A DNA stretch of 64,000 nucleotides from assembly GCF_044324875.1 (NCBI RefSeq), contig NZ_CP172185.1, one strand, 5' to 3'. Below are positions 19,006-32,967 of this stretch, in pieces. The first letter of the stretch is position 1, and every line of letters begins with the position of its first letter. The notes under the pieces were generated by a model. That model was not told the origin of the DNA. It did not search any database and worked only from the letters and a program-made list of their open reading frames with translations. The position numbers and the translations under genes are program-made. This DNA is from Escherichia coli (GTDB lineage Bacteria > Pseudomonadota > Gammaproteobacteria > Enterobacterales > Enterobacteriaceae).

Positions 19006-19030
19006 ATTCTCCAGACAGTGTCTGGAGAAT
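19006..19030. repeat. 25-bp palindrome ATTCTCCAGACA-G-TGTCTGGAGAAT between convergent yhcH and yhcG; probable bidirectional terminator and member of a local palindromic repeat family
   Basis: Perfect 12-bp arms around a 1-nt centre, read directly. Confidence 0.6.
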
Positions 19031-19045
19031 TCGAAACCGCTGAAA

Positions 19046-20134
19046 TTAACGGCGTCTATAGCCTTCCTCTAGCACCGCCTGTGTTCGAACGAGTTCATCT
19101 GCGAGTCGTTTCTCATCAGGTAGTTGCATCTTATATTCGCTTGCCAGAACGGTGTTAGGCAAACCTGCCAGAGCATAATGCGCTTCGCCGGCTCCTTTCT
19201 CTGCACAGAGAATCAGACCGATGGGCGGATTTTCATCCGGTAGCGTCCAGTGATCTTTGGCGTAGTTGAGATACATATTCATCTGTCCGGCATCGCTATA
19301 GCTGAATTTGCCCACTTTTAGATCGACGATTAGCAGGCAGCATAAACGGCGGTGGAAAAACAGCAGATCGACACGAAACCAGTTATCATCAATGCGTAAC
19401 CTTCGCTGCCGACCAACAAAGGCAAAATCATCCCCAAGTTCCAGCATGAAATCCATCAGGTGGTTGATCAGCGCCTCCTCGAAATCAGATTCTGAATATT
19501 CATCTTTCAATTCCAGAAATTCGAGCACAAAGGGATCGCGTATCGCCTGCTGCGGAAGAATATGCGTCTCGGTAGGAGCGTGTTGTTGCAGCATGGCTGA
19601 TTTGTCATGTGACAGTAGTGTTCGCTCATAAAATTGGGTCGCAATTTGCCGCTCTAGCTGGCGAACAGACCAGCCACAGCGGAGCGTCTCTTTTTCATAA
19701 AAGCTACGAGCGTCAGCGTTTTTAACAGAAAGCAAACGGACGTAAGTGGACCAGGGCCGGGGGAAAGATTTGGCAGACAGCGTCTGCCAAATCTTTCCCG
19801 ATGGGAATTCTGCAGACGGTGTCTGCGGAATTTCAACATGTTGAAAAAAGAGGTAAAAAAGTCTCATTTGGCGCAAGTTTTTTGCAGAGAACCCACGCTT
19901 ATACCTTAGACATAAATCCTTTGATAGTCGCTTGATTAGCTGCGCACCATACGCAGCCCTGGCCTCGCCACCTTGTTCAAATTCGACAATTCGTCGGCCA
20001 ATTTCCCAGTATGTCGCGGTCATCAGCGCGTTAACGCTACGTACCGTTTCCGTCCGGGCGCTATCGACCAGGTGAATAATACCGTCGTGGATTTGCTGGT
20101 AGCCTGTTGAGGTTCTCTCTGAGAGCGATTCCAT
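19046..20134 (-). CDS. yhcG: YhcG, DUF1016 protein with predicted PD-(D/E)xK nuclease fold
   Basis: 362-aa ORF MESLSERTSTGYQQIHDGIIHLVDSARTETVRSVNALMTATYWEIGRRIVEFEQGG... Confidence 0.85.
   Translation of the reverse strand: MESLSERTSTGYQQIHDGIIHLVDSARTETVRSVNALMTATYWEIGRRIVEFEQGGEARAAYGAQLIKRLSKDLCLRYKRGFSAKNLRQMRLFYLFFQHVEIPQTPSAEFPSGKIWQTLSAKSFPRPWSTYVRLLSVKNADARSFYEKETLRCGWSVRQLERQIATQFYERTLLSHDKSAMLQQHAPTETHILPQQAIRDPFVLEFLELKDEYSESDFEEALINHLMDFMLELGDDFAFVGRQRRLRIDDNWFRVDLLFFHRRLCCLLIVDLKVGKFSYSDAGQMNMYLNYAKDHWTLPDENPPIGLILCAEKGAGEAHYALAGLPNTVLASEYKMQLPDEKRLADELVRTQAVLEEGYRRR
19761..19832. repeat. Two adjacent palindromic units inside the yhcG reading frame, related to the 19006-19030 palindrome
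   Basis: 19761-19799 perfect 18-bp arms around AGC (GGGAAAGATTTGGCAGAC/GTCTGCCAAATCTTTCCC); 19805-19832 imperfect copy GAATTCTGCAGACGGTGTCTGCGGAATT; shared core CAGAC(A/G)G(C/T)GTCTG. Confidence 0.6.
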
Positions 20135-21748: not shown

Positions 21749-24700
21749 TTACTGCGCCTGCACGCGCAACTCTGCTGCGCTACGACTACGGTGACCCAGC
21801 AGTGCTTTTACATCACTGGACTTCGGTTTAACCAGCGCAAATTTAGTGGCGAAGGTTGACCAGTTCGCCAGAATCTCTTCACCACGCTGGGAACCGGTAT
21901 GCTGCACATGCTCGGTGATAAGTCCACGCAGATGCTCTTCATGGATCGCCAGATCGTCAACGCTTAAGACCTCGACCAGTTCCGGGTTAACGCGTTTGCG
22001 GAAATCGCCGCTTTCATCGAGAACGTAAGCGAAGCCGCCGGTCATGCCCGCGCCGAAGTTAACGCCGGTTTTACCGAGAATACAGACAATACCGCCTGTC
22101 ATATATTCACAGCCGTTGTCGCCAATGCCTTCTACCACGGTGATAGCACCGGAGTTACGCACGCCGAAACGTTCACCCGCGCGGCCTGCGGCATACAGAC
22201 GACCTCCGGTCGCGCCATACAGGCAGGTGTTGCCGATAATGCTTGCTTCATGGCTGCGGAAGGCTGAGCCAACCGGAGGACGAATGGCGATTAAGCCGCC
22301 CGCCATGCCTTTACCAACATAGTCGTTGGCATCACCGGTCAGGTACAGTTCCACGCCGCCCGCGTTCCACACGCCGAAGCTCTGGCCTGCGGTGCCGTTG
22401 AAGTACGCTTTGATCGGATCGGCTGCCAGACCCTGATCGCCGTGCGTCTGGGCGATATAGCCTGAAAGCGACGCGCCGACAGAACGGTCGGTGTTGCGAA
22501 TATCGAACCAGAAGGTTTTGCTCTGACGCTCATCGACAAACGGTTTTGCCTGTTGCAGCAACTGCGCGTTCAGCAGACCGTTATCAAACGGCGGGTTGTT
22601 TTCGGTGCAGTAAAGTGCCTTACCAGCATGCGGCTCGGCAGTCTCCAGCAGCTTCGACAGTGCCAGTTTCTGCTGTTTGGCGGTGAAACCGTCCAGCTCT
22701 TTCAGCAGGTCGGTGCGACCAATCAGATCCACCAGACGCGTTACCCCCAGTTGTGCCATCAGCTCGCGGGTTTCTCGGGCGATAAACTCAAAGTAATTAG
22801 TCACCTTGAACGGCAGGCCGTGATAGTGATTCTTACGCAGTTTGTCATCCTGAGTTGCAACACCCGTAGCGCAGTTGTTCAGATGGCAAATACGCAGATA
22901 TTTACAACCGAGCGCCACCATCGGGCCAGTGCCGAAGCCGAAGCTTTCTGCGCCGAGAATCGCCGCTTTGATGATATCGACACCCGTTTTCAGGCCGCCA
23001 TCAACCTGCAAACGAATTTTATGACGTAAACCGTTGGCAACCAGCGCCTGTTGGGTTTCCACCAGGCCGAGTTCCCACGGACAGCCTGCGTATTTCACCG
23101 ATGAAAGCGGACTTGCGCCGGTGCCGCCGTCATAGCCTGCGATGGTGATCAAGTCCGCATAAGCTTTCGCCACGCCAGTCGCGATGGTGCCGACGCCCGG
23201 TTCGGACACCAGCTTCACGGAGATCATCGCTTTCGGGTTAACCTGCTTGAGGTCGAAAATGAGCTGCGCTAAGTCCTCGATAGAATAGATATCGTGGTGC
23301 GGCGGCGGGGAGATCAGCGTCACGCCCGGCACCGAATAGCGCAGTTTGGCAATGTAAGGAGTGACTTTATCACCCGGCAACTGACCTCCTTCGCCCGGCT
23401 TCGCGCCCTGGGCGACTTTAATCTGAATCACGTCAGCATTGACCAGGTACGCCGGAGTAACGCCGAAGCGACCAGAAGCCACCTGCTTGATGCGCGACAC
23501 TTTGTTAGTGCCGTAGCGCGCCGGATCTTCACCACCTTCACCGGAGTTCGAGTTACCGCCGATGCTATTCATCGCTTCCGCCAGCGCCTCGTGGGCTTCC
23601 GGGCTTAACGCGCCGATAGACATCGCAGCGGTATCGAAGCGTTTAAACAGTTCGCTTGCCGGTTCAACATCGGCAATGTTGACTGCGTTTTCACCCGGCG
23701 TAATTGCCAGCAGATCGCGCAGCGTGGTTGCCGGACGCTCATTAACCAGCTTCGCGTATTCCTGATAGTCGCTGTACTCGCCGCTTTGTACCGCCTGTTG
23801 CAGCGTGCGCACCACGTCCGGGTTGTAGGCGTGGTATTCGCCGCCGTGGACGTATTTCAGCAGGCCGCCCTGGCTGATGGGCTTACGCGCCAGCCAGGCA
23901 CGTTTCGACAGGTTCAGCAGATCCTGCTGGAAGTCTTCAAAGCTTGCCCCACCAATGCGGCTGACCGCTCCCTGGAAGCACAGGCCCACTACATCATCGT
24001 GTAGACCGACCGCTTCAAACAGTTTCGAGCAGCGGTAAGAGGCGATGGTGGAGATGCCCATTTTGGACATGATTTTGTACAAGCCTTTGTTGATGCCGTT
24101 ACGGTAGTTCAGCATCACTGTACGATAATCTTTGGCAATCGCATGGGTGTCTACCAGGCGGCCCAGCGTTTCATAGGCAAGGTATGGATAAATAGCCGTC
24201 GCACCGAAGCCCAGCAACACGGCGAAATGGTGCGGATCGCGGGCGCTGGCGGTTTCGACGATGATGTTGGCATCGCAACGCAGGCTTTGATCGACCAGAC
24301 GGGTCTGGATCGCGCCAACCGCCATCGGGGCTGGAACCGGCAGGCGATCTTTAGCGATATTCCGGTCGGAGAGCACCAGCAGCACGGTGCCGCTACGTAC
24401 CATTTTTTCGGCTTTGTCACACAGCTCTTTGACCGTCGCTTCGAGCGTTGTTTTAGTGACGTCAAAGGTGATATCCAGCGTATCTGCGCGGTAGTGCTCC
24501 TCTTTCATCGTCGTGAGCTGTTTGAAATCGGAGTAGAGCAGAATCGGCGATTTAAAGCTTAAACGGTGCGCCTGGCCTTCTGCTTCACAGAAGACGTTCA
24601 TTTCACGACCGATACTGGTGGCGAGCGACATAACATGCGCTTCACGCAGCGGGTCGATTGGCGGGTTAGTCACCTGGGCAAATTGCTGGCGGAAGTAGTC

Positions 24701-26302
24701 GTAAATGATGCGTGGCTGACTGGAGAGCACGGCGAATGGGGTGTCGTCGCCCATCGAACCGACCGCTTCCTGACCGTTTTCGCCCAGCACGCGAATTACG
24801 GAGTCCAGCTCTTCCGCGCTGTAGTTAAACTGTTTCTGGTAGCTGGCAAGTGTGTCGTCGTCCAGTTCGCGGCTACCTACTTCTTCATCGGGCAGATCTT
24901 CAAACGGTACCAGTCGGCGGACGTTTTTCTCCATCCACTCTTTATATGGATGGCGGCTTTTCAGATCGTCATCGGTTTCTGCCGAGTGCAGAATACGCCC
25001 ACTGCGGGTGTCGATAACCATCAGTTCGCCTGGCCCGACGCGGCCTTTTTCGACCACTTCGTCAGGCTGGTAATCCCAGATACCGACTTCAGAGGCGCAG
25101 GTGATGAGCTTATCTTTGGTAATGACGTAGCGTGCCGGACGCAGACCGTTACGGTCGAGGTTACAGGCGGCAAAACGACCATCGGACATCACGATGCCCG
25201 CCGGGCCATCCCACGGCTCCATATGCATGGAGTTAAAGTCAAAGAAGGCACGCAGTTCCGGGTCCATATCCGGGTTGTTCTGCCAGGCGGGTGGCACTAA
25301 CAGGCGCATGGCACGGATGATATCCATCCCGCCTGCCAGCAGCAGTTCCAGCATGTTATCCATGGAACTGGAGTCAGAACCGGTTTCGTTGACGAACGGC
25401 GCGGCGTCGTGCAGGTCAGGGATCAGCGGCGTCTGGAATTTATAGGTACGTGCACGCGCCCATTGGCGGTTACCGGTGATGGTGTTGATTTCACCGTTAT
25501 GCGCCAGATAGCGGAACGGCTGCGCCAGCGGCCAGCGCGGTACGGTGTTAGTGGAGAAGCGCTGGTGGAACAGGCAGATGGCCGATTCCAGACGCAGGTC
25601 CGCGAGGTCCAGGTAGAAGCGCGGCAGATCCGCCGGCATACACAGACCTTTATAGATGTTCACCAGATTCGACAGGCTACAGACGTAGAAGTCTTTGTCG
25701 GCTTCGAGACGCTTTTCAATGCGGCGGCGGGCGATAAACAGACGGCGCTCCATATCGCGCGGACGCCAGCCTGCCGGGGCGTTCACAAAAATTTGCTCAA
25801 TGCGTGGCAGAGAGGAGAGGGCGATTTCACCCAGCACGCCTTCGTTAGTGGGGACATCACGCCAGCCCACAATCGACAACGTTTCGCGTTGCAGCTCTTC
25901 TTCAACGATGCGGCGTGCGGCAGCGGCGAGTTCAGGATCTTTATTCAGGAAGAGCATCCCGACGGCGTAGTTTTTTGCTAAACGCCAGCCGCGCTCCTGC
26001 GCAACGATGCGAAAAAAGCGATCCGGTTTTTGTAACAGCAAGCCGCAACCGTCACCGGTTTTACCATCGGCGAGAATCGCGCCACGGTGCTGCATGCGGG
26101 CCAGTGCGTGTATTGCAGTACGCACTACCTTGTGGCTAGGTTCGCCTTCTATGTGGGCGATCAGGCCGAAACCACAGTTATCCCTCTCAAGGGATTTATC
26201 GTACAACATATCGTGAACCTCCCCCAGGCTCTGCGGGAACCCCACTTCCGAACCGCTGCGCACGGGCACAGAAAGAGCGTGGCGACGGGGTTTGCGTGTC
26301 AT
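21749..26302 (-). CDS. gltB: Glutamate synthase large subunit
   Basis: ORF 21749-26317; start taken at MTRKPRRHALSVPVRSG... (propeptide before Cys of CGFGL), 1517 aa. Confidence 0.93.
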   Translation of the reverse strand: MTRKPRRHALSVPVRSGSEVGFPQSLGEVHDMLYDKSLERDNCGFGLIAHIEGEPSHKVVRTAIHALARMQHRGAILADGKTGDGCGLLLQKPDRFFRIVAQERGWRLAKNYAVGMLFLNKDPELAAAARRIVEEELQRETLSIVGWRDVPTNEGVLGEIALSSLPRIEQIFVNAPAGWRPRDMERRLFIARRRIEKRLEADKDFYVCSLSNLVNIYKGLCMPADLPRFYLDLADLRLESAICLFHQRFSTNTVPRWPLAQPFRYLAHNGEINTITGNRQWARARTYKFQTPLIPDLHDAAPFVNETGSDSSSMDNMLELLLAGGMDIIRAMRLLVPPAWQNNPDMDPELRAFFDFNSMHMEPWDGPAGIVMSDGRFAACNLDRNGLRPARYVITKDKLITCASEVGIWDYQPDEVVEKGRVGPGELMVIDTRSGRILHSAETDDDLKSRHPYKEWMEKNVRRLVPFEDLPDEEVGSRELDDDTLASYQKQFNYSAEELDSVIRVLGENGQEAVGSMGDDTPFAVLSSQPRIIYDYFRQQFAQVTNPPIDPLREAHVMSLATSIGREMNVFCEAEGQAHRLSFKSPILLYSDFKQLTTMKEEHYRADTLDITFDVTKTTLEATVKELCDKAEKMVRSGTVLLVLSDRNIAKDRLPVPAPMAVGAIQTRLVDQSLRCDANIIVETASARDPHHFAVLLGFGATAIYPYLAYETLGRLVDTHAIAKDYRTVMLNYRNGINKGLYKIMSKMGISTIASYRCSKLFEAVGLHDDVVGLCFQGAVSRIGGASFEDFQQDLLNLSKRAWLARKPISQGGLLKYVHGGEYHAYNPDVVRTLQQAVQSGEYSDYQEYAKLVNERPATTLRDLLAITPGENAVNIADVEPASELFKRFDTAAMSIGALSPEAHEALAEAMNSIGGNSNSGEGGEDPARYGTNKVSRIKQVASGRFGVTPAYLVNADVIQIKVAQGAKPGEGGQLPGDKVTPYIAKLRYSVPGVTLISPPPHHDIYSIEDLAQLIFDLKQVNPKAMISVKLVSEPGVGTIATGVAKAYADLITIAGYDGGTGASPLSSVKYAGCPWELGLVETQQALVANGLRHKIRLQVDGGLKTGVDIIKAAILGAESFGFGTGPMVALGCKYLRICHLNNCATGVATQDDKLRKNHYHGLPFKVTNYFEFIARETRELMAQLGVTRLVDLIGRTDLLKELDGFTAKQQKLALSKLLETAEPHAGKALYCTENNPPFDNGLLNAQLLQQAKPFVDERQSKTFWFDIRNTDRSVGASLSGYIAQTHGDQGLAADPIKAYFNGTAGQSFGVWNAGGVELYLTGDANDYVGKGMAGGLIAIRPPVGSAFRSHEASIIGNTCLYGATGGRLYAAGRAGERFGVRNSGAITVVEGIGDNGCEYMTGGIVCILGKTGVNFGAGMTGGFAYVLDESGDFRKRVNPELVEVLSVDDLAIHEEHLRGLITEHVQHTGSQRGEEILANWSTFATKFALVKPKSSDVKALLGHRSRSAAELRVQAQ

Positions 26303-26883
26303 ACGCGCGCCTCGCATTCGCCCCCTTGTTGTCCTTTTCGCATCGGTTAATACGGTGAAGAGGGGATCTCAATTACTGCATAAATATGATGAGCAGGCTG
26401 CTCATCCAGAAAGCTTCCAGCGGATTTCCAACTTATCGGGAAAGCTGATACAGGTCAAATGGCAAGCTTATTGGTACAGAAATGTGCTTTAGCGCAAAAT
26501 TCTTTATTAATTGGCTGAAATTAAAATAGATTTTCTATTTAAGGCTAAAAGGGAAGTCGTTAGAGAAACATCCAATTCCTGACTGTCATAAAGGCGTGTT
26601 AACCCTTATCCTGCCTTGAACTGACGAGAAAACCAGCATTTTATACTGCCTTAATTGGTAATGACGTTTCATGCTACTGTTTTTGCCTAAAATCCATAAG
26701 GAGATAAAAAAATCTGACACAAGATAAGCAAAAATGATTTATGTGATCATGCATGAAATTTCGGTAATTTTGATTGATTATGCAGTTGATAAAAGCGGGC
26801 CGGGACGATTGATCCAGGTCATCGCCGAATTGAGCTAAAAATGGCAGGCTTTGGCCTCTTTTCAAGGCGCGGTCTATCAGATT

Positions 26884-27813
26884 ATGCAGTTACAGAAATT
26901 AGTCAATATGTTTGGTGGTGATCTCACCCGTCGTTATGGGCAAAAGGTGCATAAGCTGACGCTGCACGGCGGTTTTAGCTGCCCTAACCGTGACGGTACC
27001 ATCGGGCGTGGTGGCTGCACATTCTGTAATGTTGCCTCGTTTGCCGATGAAGCGCAGCAACATCGTTCCATTGCCGAACAACTGGCGCACCAGGCGAATT
27101 TAGTTAACCGCGCTAAACGCTATCTGGCCTACTTTCAGGCGTATACCAGCACCTTTGCGGAAGTTCAGGTGCTGCGTTCTATGTATCAGCAGGCGGTGAG
27201 CCAGGCCAATATTGTCGGTTTGTGTGTTGGTACCCGCCCGGACTGCGTGCCGGATGCAGTGCTGGATCTGCTTTGTGAATATAAAGACCAGGGCTACGAA
27301 GTGTGGCTGGAGCTGGGGCTACAAACCGCCCACGACAAAACGCTACATCGCATCAACCGCGGCCATGATTTTGCCTGTTATCAGCGTACAACCCAGCTGG
27401 CACGTCAGCGCGGGCTGAAGGTGTGTTCCCACTTAATTGTCGGCCTGCCTGGCGAAGGGCAGGCTGAATGTTTGCAAACGCTGGAGCGAGTGGTTGAAAC
27501 CGGCGTGGACGGCATAAAGCTGCATCCGCTGCATATTGTGAAAGGCAGCATTATGGCGAAAGCCTGGGAAGCGGGGCGTTTGAACGGTATTGAACTGGAG
27601 GATTACACGCTCACTGCCGGAGAAATGATTCGCCATACGCCACCGGAAGTGATCTACCACCGCATTTCCGCCAGCGCCCGTCGCCCGACGTTGCTTGCTC
27701 CGCTGTGGTGCGAAAATCGATGGACGGGAATGGTCGAGCTGGATCGTTATCTGAATGAACATGGCGTACAGGGATCGGCGCTGGGACGTCCGTGGCTACC
27801 TCCAACGGCGTAG
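26884..27813 (+). CDS. yhcC: Radical SAM protein YhcC
   Basis: ORF 26851-27813; start at ATG 26884 giving MQLQKLVNMFGGDLTRRYGQKVHKL (309 aa). Confidence 0.88.
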   Translation: MQLQKLVNMFGGDLTRRYGQKVHKLTLHGGFSCPNRDGTIGRGGCTFCNVASFADEAQQHRSIAEQLAHQANLVNRAKRYLAYFQAYTSTFAEVQVLRSMYQQAVSQANIVGLCVGTRPDCVPDAVLDLLCEYKDQGYEVWLELGLQTAHDKTLHRINRGHDFACYQRTTQLARQRGLKVCSHLIVGLPGEGQAECLQTLERVVETGVDGIKLHPLHIVKGSIMAKAWEAGRLNGIELEDYTLTAGEMIRHTPPEVIYHRISASARRPTLLAPLWCENRWTGMVELDRYLNEHGVQGSALGRPWLPPTA

Positions 27814-32549: not shown

Positions 32550-32694
32550 ATGCCTCTTAAGGTTTTCTTAAGGTTCTTCTGAAAGTGAAAAGCGCACAAA
32601 ATGTACAAATGACGTTGATTGAGAACGATTTCAGTACGCGCTTTTCTTATTGTCGGGGGAGCTTGAAGGGATTTGAATGTCAAAGTGATGAAGA

Positions 32695-32967
32695 TTAATC
32701 TTCATCAAAACCAGAATTAAAGAGGGCGATAACGGCGGCCAGTGCTTCCTCTTCCTGTGGACCGGTCGCTTCAACTTCAATCTGCCGTCCTTTGGCAGAA
32801 TCCAGCATCAGCAGTGCAATAACGCTGTTGGCTTCAGCCTCGGTGCCTTCGTCATTACGTAACAGCACTTCAGCGTCGAAACCCTGCATTAATTCAAACA
32901 GCTTCATTGCAGGCCGGGCATGCATGCCCAGCTTGTTTGTGATTTCAACAGTTTGCTTGACGGTCAT
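32695..32967 (-). CDS. npr: Nitrogen PTS phosphocarrier NPr
   Basis: 90-aa [33 protein letters not shown]... Confidence 0.95.

Follow-up and report, generated by a model that had tools for sequence, protein, structure and literature searches.

A palindrome in the gltB leader of Escherichia coli coincides with a conserved, putatively regulatory RNA stem-loop

Introduction

The control of gltBDF has been studied almost wholly at transcription initiation, with Lrp, IHF, Crp and ArgR as the regulators, and the 214-nt gltB leader, part of which was long annotated as coding, has been treated as inert. The Escherichia coli DNA analysed here, a stretch of 64,000 nucleotides (hereafter, the window), carries a perfect 19-bp palindrome upstream of gltB. 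A sequence-only reading had situated this palindrome 90–100 bp from the gltB start codon, within an AT-rich regulatory region, and had proposed that it might be either a regulator-binding site or a hairpin of the 5′ UTR. The question that the locus raises is, therefore, whether the symmetry serves the DNA or the RNA, and what function it could have there.

Results and Discussion

The palindrome lies in the transcribed leader of gltB

The gltB gene is encoded on the minus strand within a large ORF (21749–26317), for which the longest possible start is at 26317 and an older annotated start, giving 1517 aa, is at 26302. The start of K-12 gltB in RefSeq reads MLYDKSLERDNC, which corresponds to the ATG at 26209 of the window. 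The block formed by the Shine-Dalgarno sequence and this ATG is invariant across species, and only the ATG at 26209 combines a conserved Shine-Dalgarno sequence with a conserved downstream protein. The in-frame stretch upstream of it is not conserved as protein and is interrupted by frame-breaking indels between species. The old N-terminal extension of GltB was accordingly discarded as a protein segment (no Pfam match, no conservation in frame), and a plus-strand ORF of 66 aa (26292–26492) was rejected as a gene, as it has no Pfam match. The landmarks of the region are as follows.

26207–26209, minus strand: accepted gltB start codon (RefSeq NP_417679.2)
26218–26225, minus strand: Shine-Dalgarno sequence GGGGGAGG
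26430–26435, minus strand: −10 hexamer TAAGTT, invariant across Enterobacterales
26453–26458, minus strand: −35 hexamer TTGACC, separated from the −10 hexamer by a 17-bp spacer, invariant across Enterobacterales
26478–26499, minus strand: Crp-like site TTTTGCGCTAAAGCACATTTCT, the only Crp-like 22-mer, used as numbering anchor (the match is our own placement)

The palindrome, GATGAGCAG-G-CTGCTCATC in the plus-strand reading and GATGAGCAGCCTGCTCATC on the gltB-sense strand, is present at 26388–26406, exactly where it had been reported, and occurs once in the window. It consists of two perfect 9-nt arms around one central base, with no further extension. The site is unique in the window even when three mismatches are allowed, the second match being the same site on the other strand, and 5416 of 5426 complete E. 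coli genomes carry it in a single copy. A REP/BIME element would be expected in many copies per genome; one copy per genome was found. Counting palindromes whose arms span at least 9 nt around a spacer of no more than 5 nt gives 18 matches (about 10 loci) in the window, against 1.9 ± 1.5 expected from its dinucleotide shuffles, and simple arithmetic gives about 0.015 such palindromes per 640-bp intergenic region. The window is thus enriched in palindromes of this class, most of them terminator-like, and the functional case for the gltB palindrome consequently rests on conservation and not on rarity. The gltB palindrome is not a chance feature.

The regulatory sites mapped by Paul et al. 2007 (PMC1784095) are a Crp site at −76 to −55 (centre −65.5), an IHF site at −113 to −75, Lrp sites at −152, −215 and −246, and an ArgR site at −361 to −318. 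From the published Crp numbering, we infer that transcription starts at the C at 26423, 7 nt after TAAGTT, with a tolerance of ±2 nt. With +1 near 26423, the palindrome occupies positions +18 to +36 of a 5′ UTR of about 214 nt. A promoter scan of the region called no promoter, because the TTGACC-17-TAAGTT arrangement falls below the scan thresholds.

Comparison with the mapped sites shows that the palindrome is in the 5′ UTR, downstream of all Lrp, IHF, Crp and ArgR sites, which lie upstream of about −50. On a fragment extending to +246, Crp no longer bound once −121 to −48 had been replaced, and ArgR bound equally well whether its fragment stopped at −128 or continued to +246 (PMC1784095); neither Crp nor ArgR therefore needs the palindrome. 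The distance and setting given by the sequence-only reading have to be revised. The accepted ATG is 179–197 nt downstream of the palindrome, and the figure of 90–100 bp fits only the obsolete 1517-aa start at 26302. Similarly, the AT-rich regulatory DNA (36.8% GC) is found upstream of the transcription start, whereas the palindrome belongs to the transcribed leader, with a GC content of 57.5%. Between the window and K-12 there are 13 intergenic differences, all upstream of the promoter core and none in the leader.

Base pairing is conserved at the palindrome position

The comparative set comprised 80 gltB loci from species-representative genomes, in which promoter and leader are alignable across Enterobacterales. 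A hairpin, hereafter P1, is found at the palindrome position in Enterobacterales lineages, built from differing sequences.

26388–26406, minus strand: stem-loop P1, mRNA positions +18 to +36, identified by folding, covariation and G·U pairs confined to the sense strand

The conserved form of P1 consists of a 7-bp stem and a 5-nt loop, and E. coli can reach 8 bp with a GCC triloop; the folding energy is −11.1 kcal/mol (z = −2.4). A total of 28 distinct stem variants occupy the position, including GATGAGC/GCTCATC, GATGGGC/GCCCATC, GATGAAC/GTTCATC, GGTGAGC/GCTCACC and GATGGAG/CTCCATC, as well as the more divergent GACGGGT/ACCCGTC, GACGAGT/ACTCGTC, GCGGA/TCCGC and TCAGAT/ATCTGA. The loops are unconstrained, with 28 different sequences. 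In the 41-species Enterobacterales leader alignment on which the pairing statistics are based, 87.1% of the stem cells are paired, a value that none of 500 shuffles reaches (75.4 ± 1.2), and slid partners pair in only 21–49% of the cells. Six of the seven P1 pairs show two-sided changes, amounting to 54 compensatory cells. A structure-guided alignment of 52 loci with a covariance model agrees on this covariation, and a scan of all column pairs in a 255-column alignment of the full leader returned two P1 pairs as its top two covarying pairs.

The nature of the exceptions identifies the strand. The non-Watson-Crick cells of P1 comprise 22 G·U and no A·C on the gltB-sense strand, compared with no G·U on the antisense strand, so that pairing is 87% as sense RNA versus 79% as antisense RNA or DNA. 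Within E. coli, one variant strain carries an A to G change that turns an A-U pair into G·U, which breaks the DNA dyad and keeps the RNA helix; at this same pair, Pseudescherichia carries the completed G-C. As judged from the alignments, these data show that selection acts on pairing in the gltB-sense transcript and not on DNA sequence. The comparative evidence strongly supports the assignment of the palindrome to a conserved cis-acting structure of the 5′ UTR, that is, to a putative RNA-level control element.

Of the two options originally offered, it is thus the hairpin at +18 to +36 of the mRNA that agrees with the compensatory and sense-specific G·U changes; the site is within the UTR and its pairing is conserved. 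An operator reading, in which a DNA-binding regulator would use the palindrome downstream of the transcription start, has in its favour the perfect 19-bp dyad of E. coli and its centre at +27, a position where repressors can act. The half-sites, however, are not conserved (GATGAGC, GACGGGT, GCGGA, TCAGAT, GGCGATC), the symmetry survives only as RNA-type pairing (22 G·U cells, and Watson-Crick pairs in just 79% of the cells), and the E. coli strain mentioned above has lost the DNA dyad with its RNA pairing intact. Crp and ArgR bind independently of the segment (PMC1784095), and the mapped sites are all located upstream. A stem and loop that vary freely while their pairing is kept indicate a selected RNA helix and not a transcription-factor operator, an interpretation that is disfavoured and that we regard as very improbable.

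P1 is embedded in a conserved 5′ module

P1 is flanked by near-invariant segments, GCUGGAAGC on the 5′ side and AUAUUUAUGCAGU on the 3′ side, with which it forms a module of about 65 nt.

26360–26423, minus strand: 5′ leader module, +1 to +64, consisting of invariant flank, P1 and invariant flank (alignments and covariance model)
26418–26421, minus strand: P0 5′ strand GCUG, +3 to +6, inside the invariant GCUGGAAGC (26413–26421)
26375–26378, minus strand: P0 3′ strand CAGU, +46 to +49, within the invariant AUAUUUAUGCAGU

The fuller flanks, CCGCUGGAAGCUUUCUG and CAUAUUUAUGCAGUAAU (UGAGAUUCCCUC), are nearly invariant and are held at fixed spacing from Enterobacterales to a Photobacterium. This species, Photobacterium alginatilyticum (L062 of the comparative set), has a different stem (GGCGAUC/GAUUGCC) but shares with E. 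coli both flanks, GCUGGAAGC and AUAUGCAGUAAU, as well as the 6-nt linker, the stem length of 7 bp and the loop length of 5 nt. The segment AUUUAUGCAGU is kept even in Aeromonas. A covariance model of the module (R1) detects it once per locus and always upstream of gltB, and nothing else in the window scores. The scores range from 29.7 to 89 bits in Enterobacterales, with at least 37 bits in all but Hafnia (L033), and reach 23 bits in the Photobacterium. The modules of Hafnia and Edwardsiella each carry an insertion, and Budvicia lacks the module. Of 5416 E. coli genomes, 5379 carry the module at 99% identity or more.

Beneath P1, RNAalifold predicts on two alignments a short basal helix, P0, formed by GCUG and CAGU, the latter overlapping an AUG-CAG-UAA mini-frame at 26373–26381. 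In P0, 99% of the cells are paired with one-sided changes only, a G·U to A-U change being found in ten sequences. The helix contributes about −3 kcal/mol in E. coli and extends to 7 bp in Photorhabdus (GUCACUG/CAGUGAC). Alternatively, GCUGGAAGC can fold as GCU-GGA-AGC, a 3-bp stem with a GGA loop that appears in the MFE structure.

A scan of 26100–26900 against Rfam 15 (E ≤ 10) returned noise only and no relevant family, the RefSeq annotation shows nothing at the site, and no description of the module was found in the literature. The module is a previously undescribed RNA element, although the class to which it belongs, cis-acting stem-loops of the 5′ UTR, is familiar. Most Enterobacterales also have a second small hairpin, GCAAGU-CCUCAAN-ACUUGU, directly after the module (L002–L040, alignment positions around 1340–1370), which E. 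coli, including the window (26330–26358, minus strand), lacks by a deletion of about 15 nt.

A scaffold for post-transcriptional control is the favoured role

The palindrome is the DNA counterpart of P1 at +18 to +36 of the gltBDF mRNA, and P1 forms the apical helix of a 65-nt module beginning at the mRNA 5′ end. The flanks would close the basal P0 (GCUG/CAGU, from +3), giving a 5′-terminal stem, an internal loop and a second stem. P1 may then serve as a rigid scaffold, presenting the invariant segments in a set geometry to trans-acting post-transcriptional regulators, and, by adding to a base-paired 5′ end, may slow 5′-end-dependent decay. The leading candidate partner would be RyhB with Hfq on GCUGGAAGC (+3 to +11), in an iron-sparing repression of an Fe-S enzyme; the second candidate would be CsrA on the GGA of GCU-GGA-AGC. 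The stem changes in sequence yet preserves its geometry, with invariant single-stranded blocks on either side, which suggests that it is a scaffold on which these blocks are recognised. On comparative grounds, we favour this role as scaffold or 5′-terminal structure with somewhat better than even confidence. A simple scaffold, however, does not explain the invariant nucleotides of the internal loop.

Stabilising 5′-terminal stem-loops of the ompA type were reportedly described by Emory, Bouvet and Belasco in 1992 in long enterobacterial 5′ UTRs. The gltB hairpin is similarly placed near the 5′ end of a long leader, and only about 2 nt would remain unpaired if the predicted P0 forms (from +3). 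By contrast, P1 alone starts at +18, P0 has only 4 bp and no covariation, and the gltB flanks are invariant in sequence, which a pure stabiliser would not need. If P0 does not form, 17 nt separate the hairpin from the 5′ end, a distance too great for a classical 5′-terminal stabiliser.

The leader element is conserved more strictly than the surrounding regulatory DNA and shows clear RNA covariation, which suggests that one of the two ammonia-assimilation routes has an additional, post-transcriptional layer of control. It also offers a concrete mutable site for scattered omics hints: effects of RyhB, GcvB and OmrA/B, CsrA in Vibrio, and a premature 3′ end in the leader.

RyhB and CsrA as candidate partners

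Target modules for sRNAs and Hfq in far-upstream leader regions are known from RyhB-shiA and RydC-cfa. The gltB leader resembles them in having a conserved single-stranded block complementary to an sRNA core beside a stable hairpin, and in being a leader found on Hfq; it differs in that the RyhB pairing is only predicted and is about 200 nt from the ribosome-binding site. As a special case of the scaffold, GCUUCCAGU of RyhB would pair with +3 to +11, displace the P0 partner strand and expose or remodel the leader, lowering GOGAT synthesis under iron limitation, with P1 as an adjacent structural or Hfq-positioning element. An interaction calculation with the K-12 RyhB sequence, windowed and corrected for accessibility, places the best leader site at RyhB nt 53–61 (GCUUCCAGU) with +3 to +11 (GCUGGAAGC), 9 bp within the most conserved block. 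The hybridisation energy is −16.2 and the total −10.1 kcal/mol, a value equalled by 5 of 150 shuffles. GOGAT is an Fe-S enzyme, iron-sparing or analogous sRNAs target gltB in other bacteria, and ribosome profiling listed gltB as a new RyhB-repressed gene with about 2-fold lower occupancy (Wang et al. 2015). However, the energy is only modestly unusual, ranking third among 58 local 5′ regions of the window, and some 200 nt separate the site from the ribosome-binding site, whereas the effect in Wang et al. is mainly translational. Moreover, the gltB1 target of RyhB in V. cholerae is a different, distant paralogue, and the flank has other sequences in Photorhabdus (CUGGAAAU), Edwardsiella (CCGGAAAU), Rosenbergiella (CUGGUARC) and P. 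indicum (GCAAUAAGC). The RyhB switch is therefore put forward tentatively, as a rather doubtful version of the scaffold. Two related attempts were discarded: plain RNAduplex runs with RyhB and the leader produced meaningless duplexes spanning the full length, which did not surpass those from shuffles, and a second contact of AUUACU with AGUAAU (+47 to +52) involves an unconserved AGUAAU in a pseudoknotted arrangement.

A dimer of CsrA could alternatively bind the GGA of GCU-GGA-AGC and a GGA in the Shine-Dalgarno hairpin, with P1 as the spacer between them. This would resemble CsrA-controlled leaders (glgC type; V. alginolyticus gltB, PMC12298160), which likewise combine a GGA in a short 5′ hairpin with a GGA at the Shine-Dalgarno sequence. 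The gltB leader of V. alginolyticus is bound with high affinity in gel shifts, gltBD is de-repressed more than 10-fold (PMC12298160), and Vibrio leaders have two hairpins with GGA in the loop. For E. coli, the GGA-loop fold of GCUGGAAGC in the MFE structure and the co-purification of gltB with CsrA (Edwards 2011, as tabulated elsewhere) point in the same direction. Against this stand the E. coli CLIP-seq data, with no gltB peak, and the finding of no significant translation change in E. coli csrA. Rosenbergiella has GGU in place of the first GGA and P. indicum has lost it, although both keep the module, and a second GGA at the base of P1 is not conserved. Binding of CsrA at this site is accordingly considered unlikely in E. 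coli. The supplements of Kim 2012 and of TIER-seq do not mention gltB.

In the Vibrio gltB leaders of the comparative set (L071, L077, L080), the region from about −45 to −1 relative to the ATG contains the hairpins CUGUC-xGGAx-GACAG and GCAA-AGGGAGAA-UUGC, the latter over the Shine-Dalgarno sequence. These paired GGA hairpins constitute a textbook dual CsrA site and fit the published V. alginolyticus gel shift.

Possible roles of the hairpin in termination, translation or metabolite sensing

A scaffold is a more likely reading than a terminator, mini-ORF or riboswitch. P1 followed by AUAUUUAU might halt the polymerase about 40–45 nt into the leader as a transcriptional pause or weak intrinsic terminator. 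Like terminators and attenuators, the gltB leader has a G+C-rich stem and then U-rich sequence; a simple lax scan flags P1 for its 8-bp stem with 4 G-C pairs and 5 U in the next 8 nt, and the tail CAUAUUUAUG is invariant. Yet the tail, CAUAUUUAU, starts with CAUA and leaves no contiguous U-tract adjoining the stem, and the invariance reaches far beyond a U-tract. Term-seq in three conditions recorded no 3′ end near MG1655 3354550, the sole leader 3′ end being at +147, and the stem thus differs from known terminators also in having no mapped 3′ end. On the basis of tail composition and Term-seq, the scan call was rejected: P1 is probably not a terminator, and a pause at this point appears improbable. 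A two-codon mini-ORF, AUG-CAG-stop (Met-Gln), would begin 7 nt past the hairpin, with P1 and P0 gating ribosomes and a possible link to glutamine or tRNA-Gln. AUGCAGU is the most conserved string and reaches Aeromonas, where CAG is changed synonymously to CAA, and the next codon is a stop in most species, varying between UAA, UGA and UAG. This frame, however, has no Shine-Dalgarno sequence; its AUG is missing in Edwardsiella and Rosenbergiella, the codon after AUG is UAG in Hafnia, and in Erwinia and Aeromonas the frame stays open for up to 8 or for more than 20 codons. Since P0 pairing accounts for the same nucleotides, translation of the mini-ORF seems a slim prospect.

Comparably slim is the prospect that the P0-loop-P1 arrangement is an undescribed metabolite-sensing RNA (e.g., for glutamine, glutamate or 2-oxoglutarate) exerting direct control of GOGAT, with the palindrome as its apical helix. 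The architecture of stem, invariant internal loop and stem is compatible with this reading, and is shared with the glutamine riboswitch and other small aptamers, as is a position in the 5′ UTR of a gene for nitrogen assimilation. The gltB module differs from these in having no Rfam match, two helices only and a narrow distribution restricted to a single gene, and any ligand is putative. Recognition of the invariant blocks on the P1 scaffold remains the favoured explanation.

Other features of the leader and its surroundings

Two further features lie downstream of the module in the leader.

26281–26322, minus strand: hairpin GGCGA...GUCGCC, +102 to +143, a conserved RNAalifold helix
26315–26344, minus strand: leader segment GATGCGAAAAGGACAACAAGGGGGCGAATG, +80 to +109, found in GcvB chimeras

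The supplement of Adams et al. 2021 lists a Term-seq 3′ end at MG1655 3354657 (window 26277, minus strand) as 'internal to gltB, 25 nt'. The 'internal' class rests on the obsolete start; by the current start, the 3′ end is therefore within the 5′ UTR, at +147. It is located 4 nt after the GGCGA...GUCGCC hairpin, just before UCUUUCU, with no Rho region listed nearby, which suggests premature termination or processing in the leader. Hfq-CLASH recovered five GcvB-gltB hybrids (Iosub et al. 2020, supplement file 8), and, given that these chimeras fall on the leader, gltB may be a GcvB target via its leader.

CCCCUCU (+59 to +65; 26359–26365, minus strand) can pair with AAGGGGG (26319–26326), a segment that overlaps the left arm of the downstream hairpin and lies just 5′ of it. 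Elsewhere, the long-range pairing takes the form CCCUCU/AGAGGG in other species and CCCCC/GGGG in Pantoea persica. The CCCUCU/AGAGGG helix is a plausible alternative structure, predicted from changes that are wobble or register-shifted only, in ambiguous alignment registers.

On the far side of the promoter, a Term-seq 3′ end at about 26793 (minus strand; MG1655 3354141) falls within G0-10702, an unnamed EcoCyc gene, close to the start of yhcC and reading toward gltB. G0-10702 is apparently the Hfq-dependent 'yhcC-gltB' sRNA of Raghavan 2011. This sRNA was dismissed as the element to which the palindrome belongs, as its position is some 370 nt upstream of the gltB start site.

Other palindromes of the window are found at a greater distance. 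Two similar ones, 19007–19029 and 19769–19791, share the core CAGACAG-N-GTCTG and are spaced about 760 bp apart downstream of gltD. The former is situated between convergent ORF ends and the latter inside a minus-strand ORF of 362 aa (19046–20134). K-12 gltF encodes about 254 aa, and the 362-aa ORF is not of this size. A perfect 22-bp palindrome, TGATGAAGATTAATCTTCATCA, at 32686–32707 overlaps the stop end of a 90-aa minus-strand ORF (32695–32967, npr/ptsO-sized), and is probably the terminator of the operon of this ORF.
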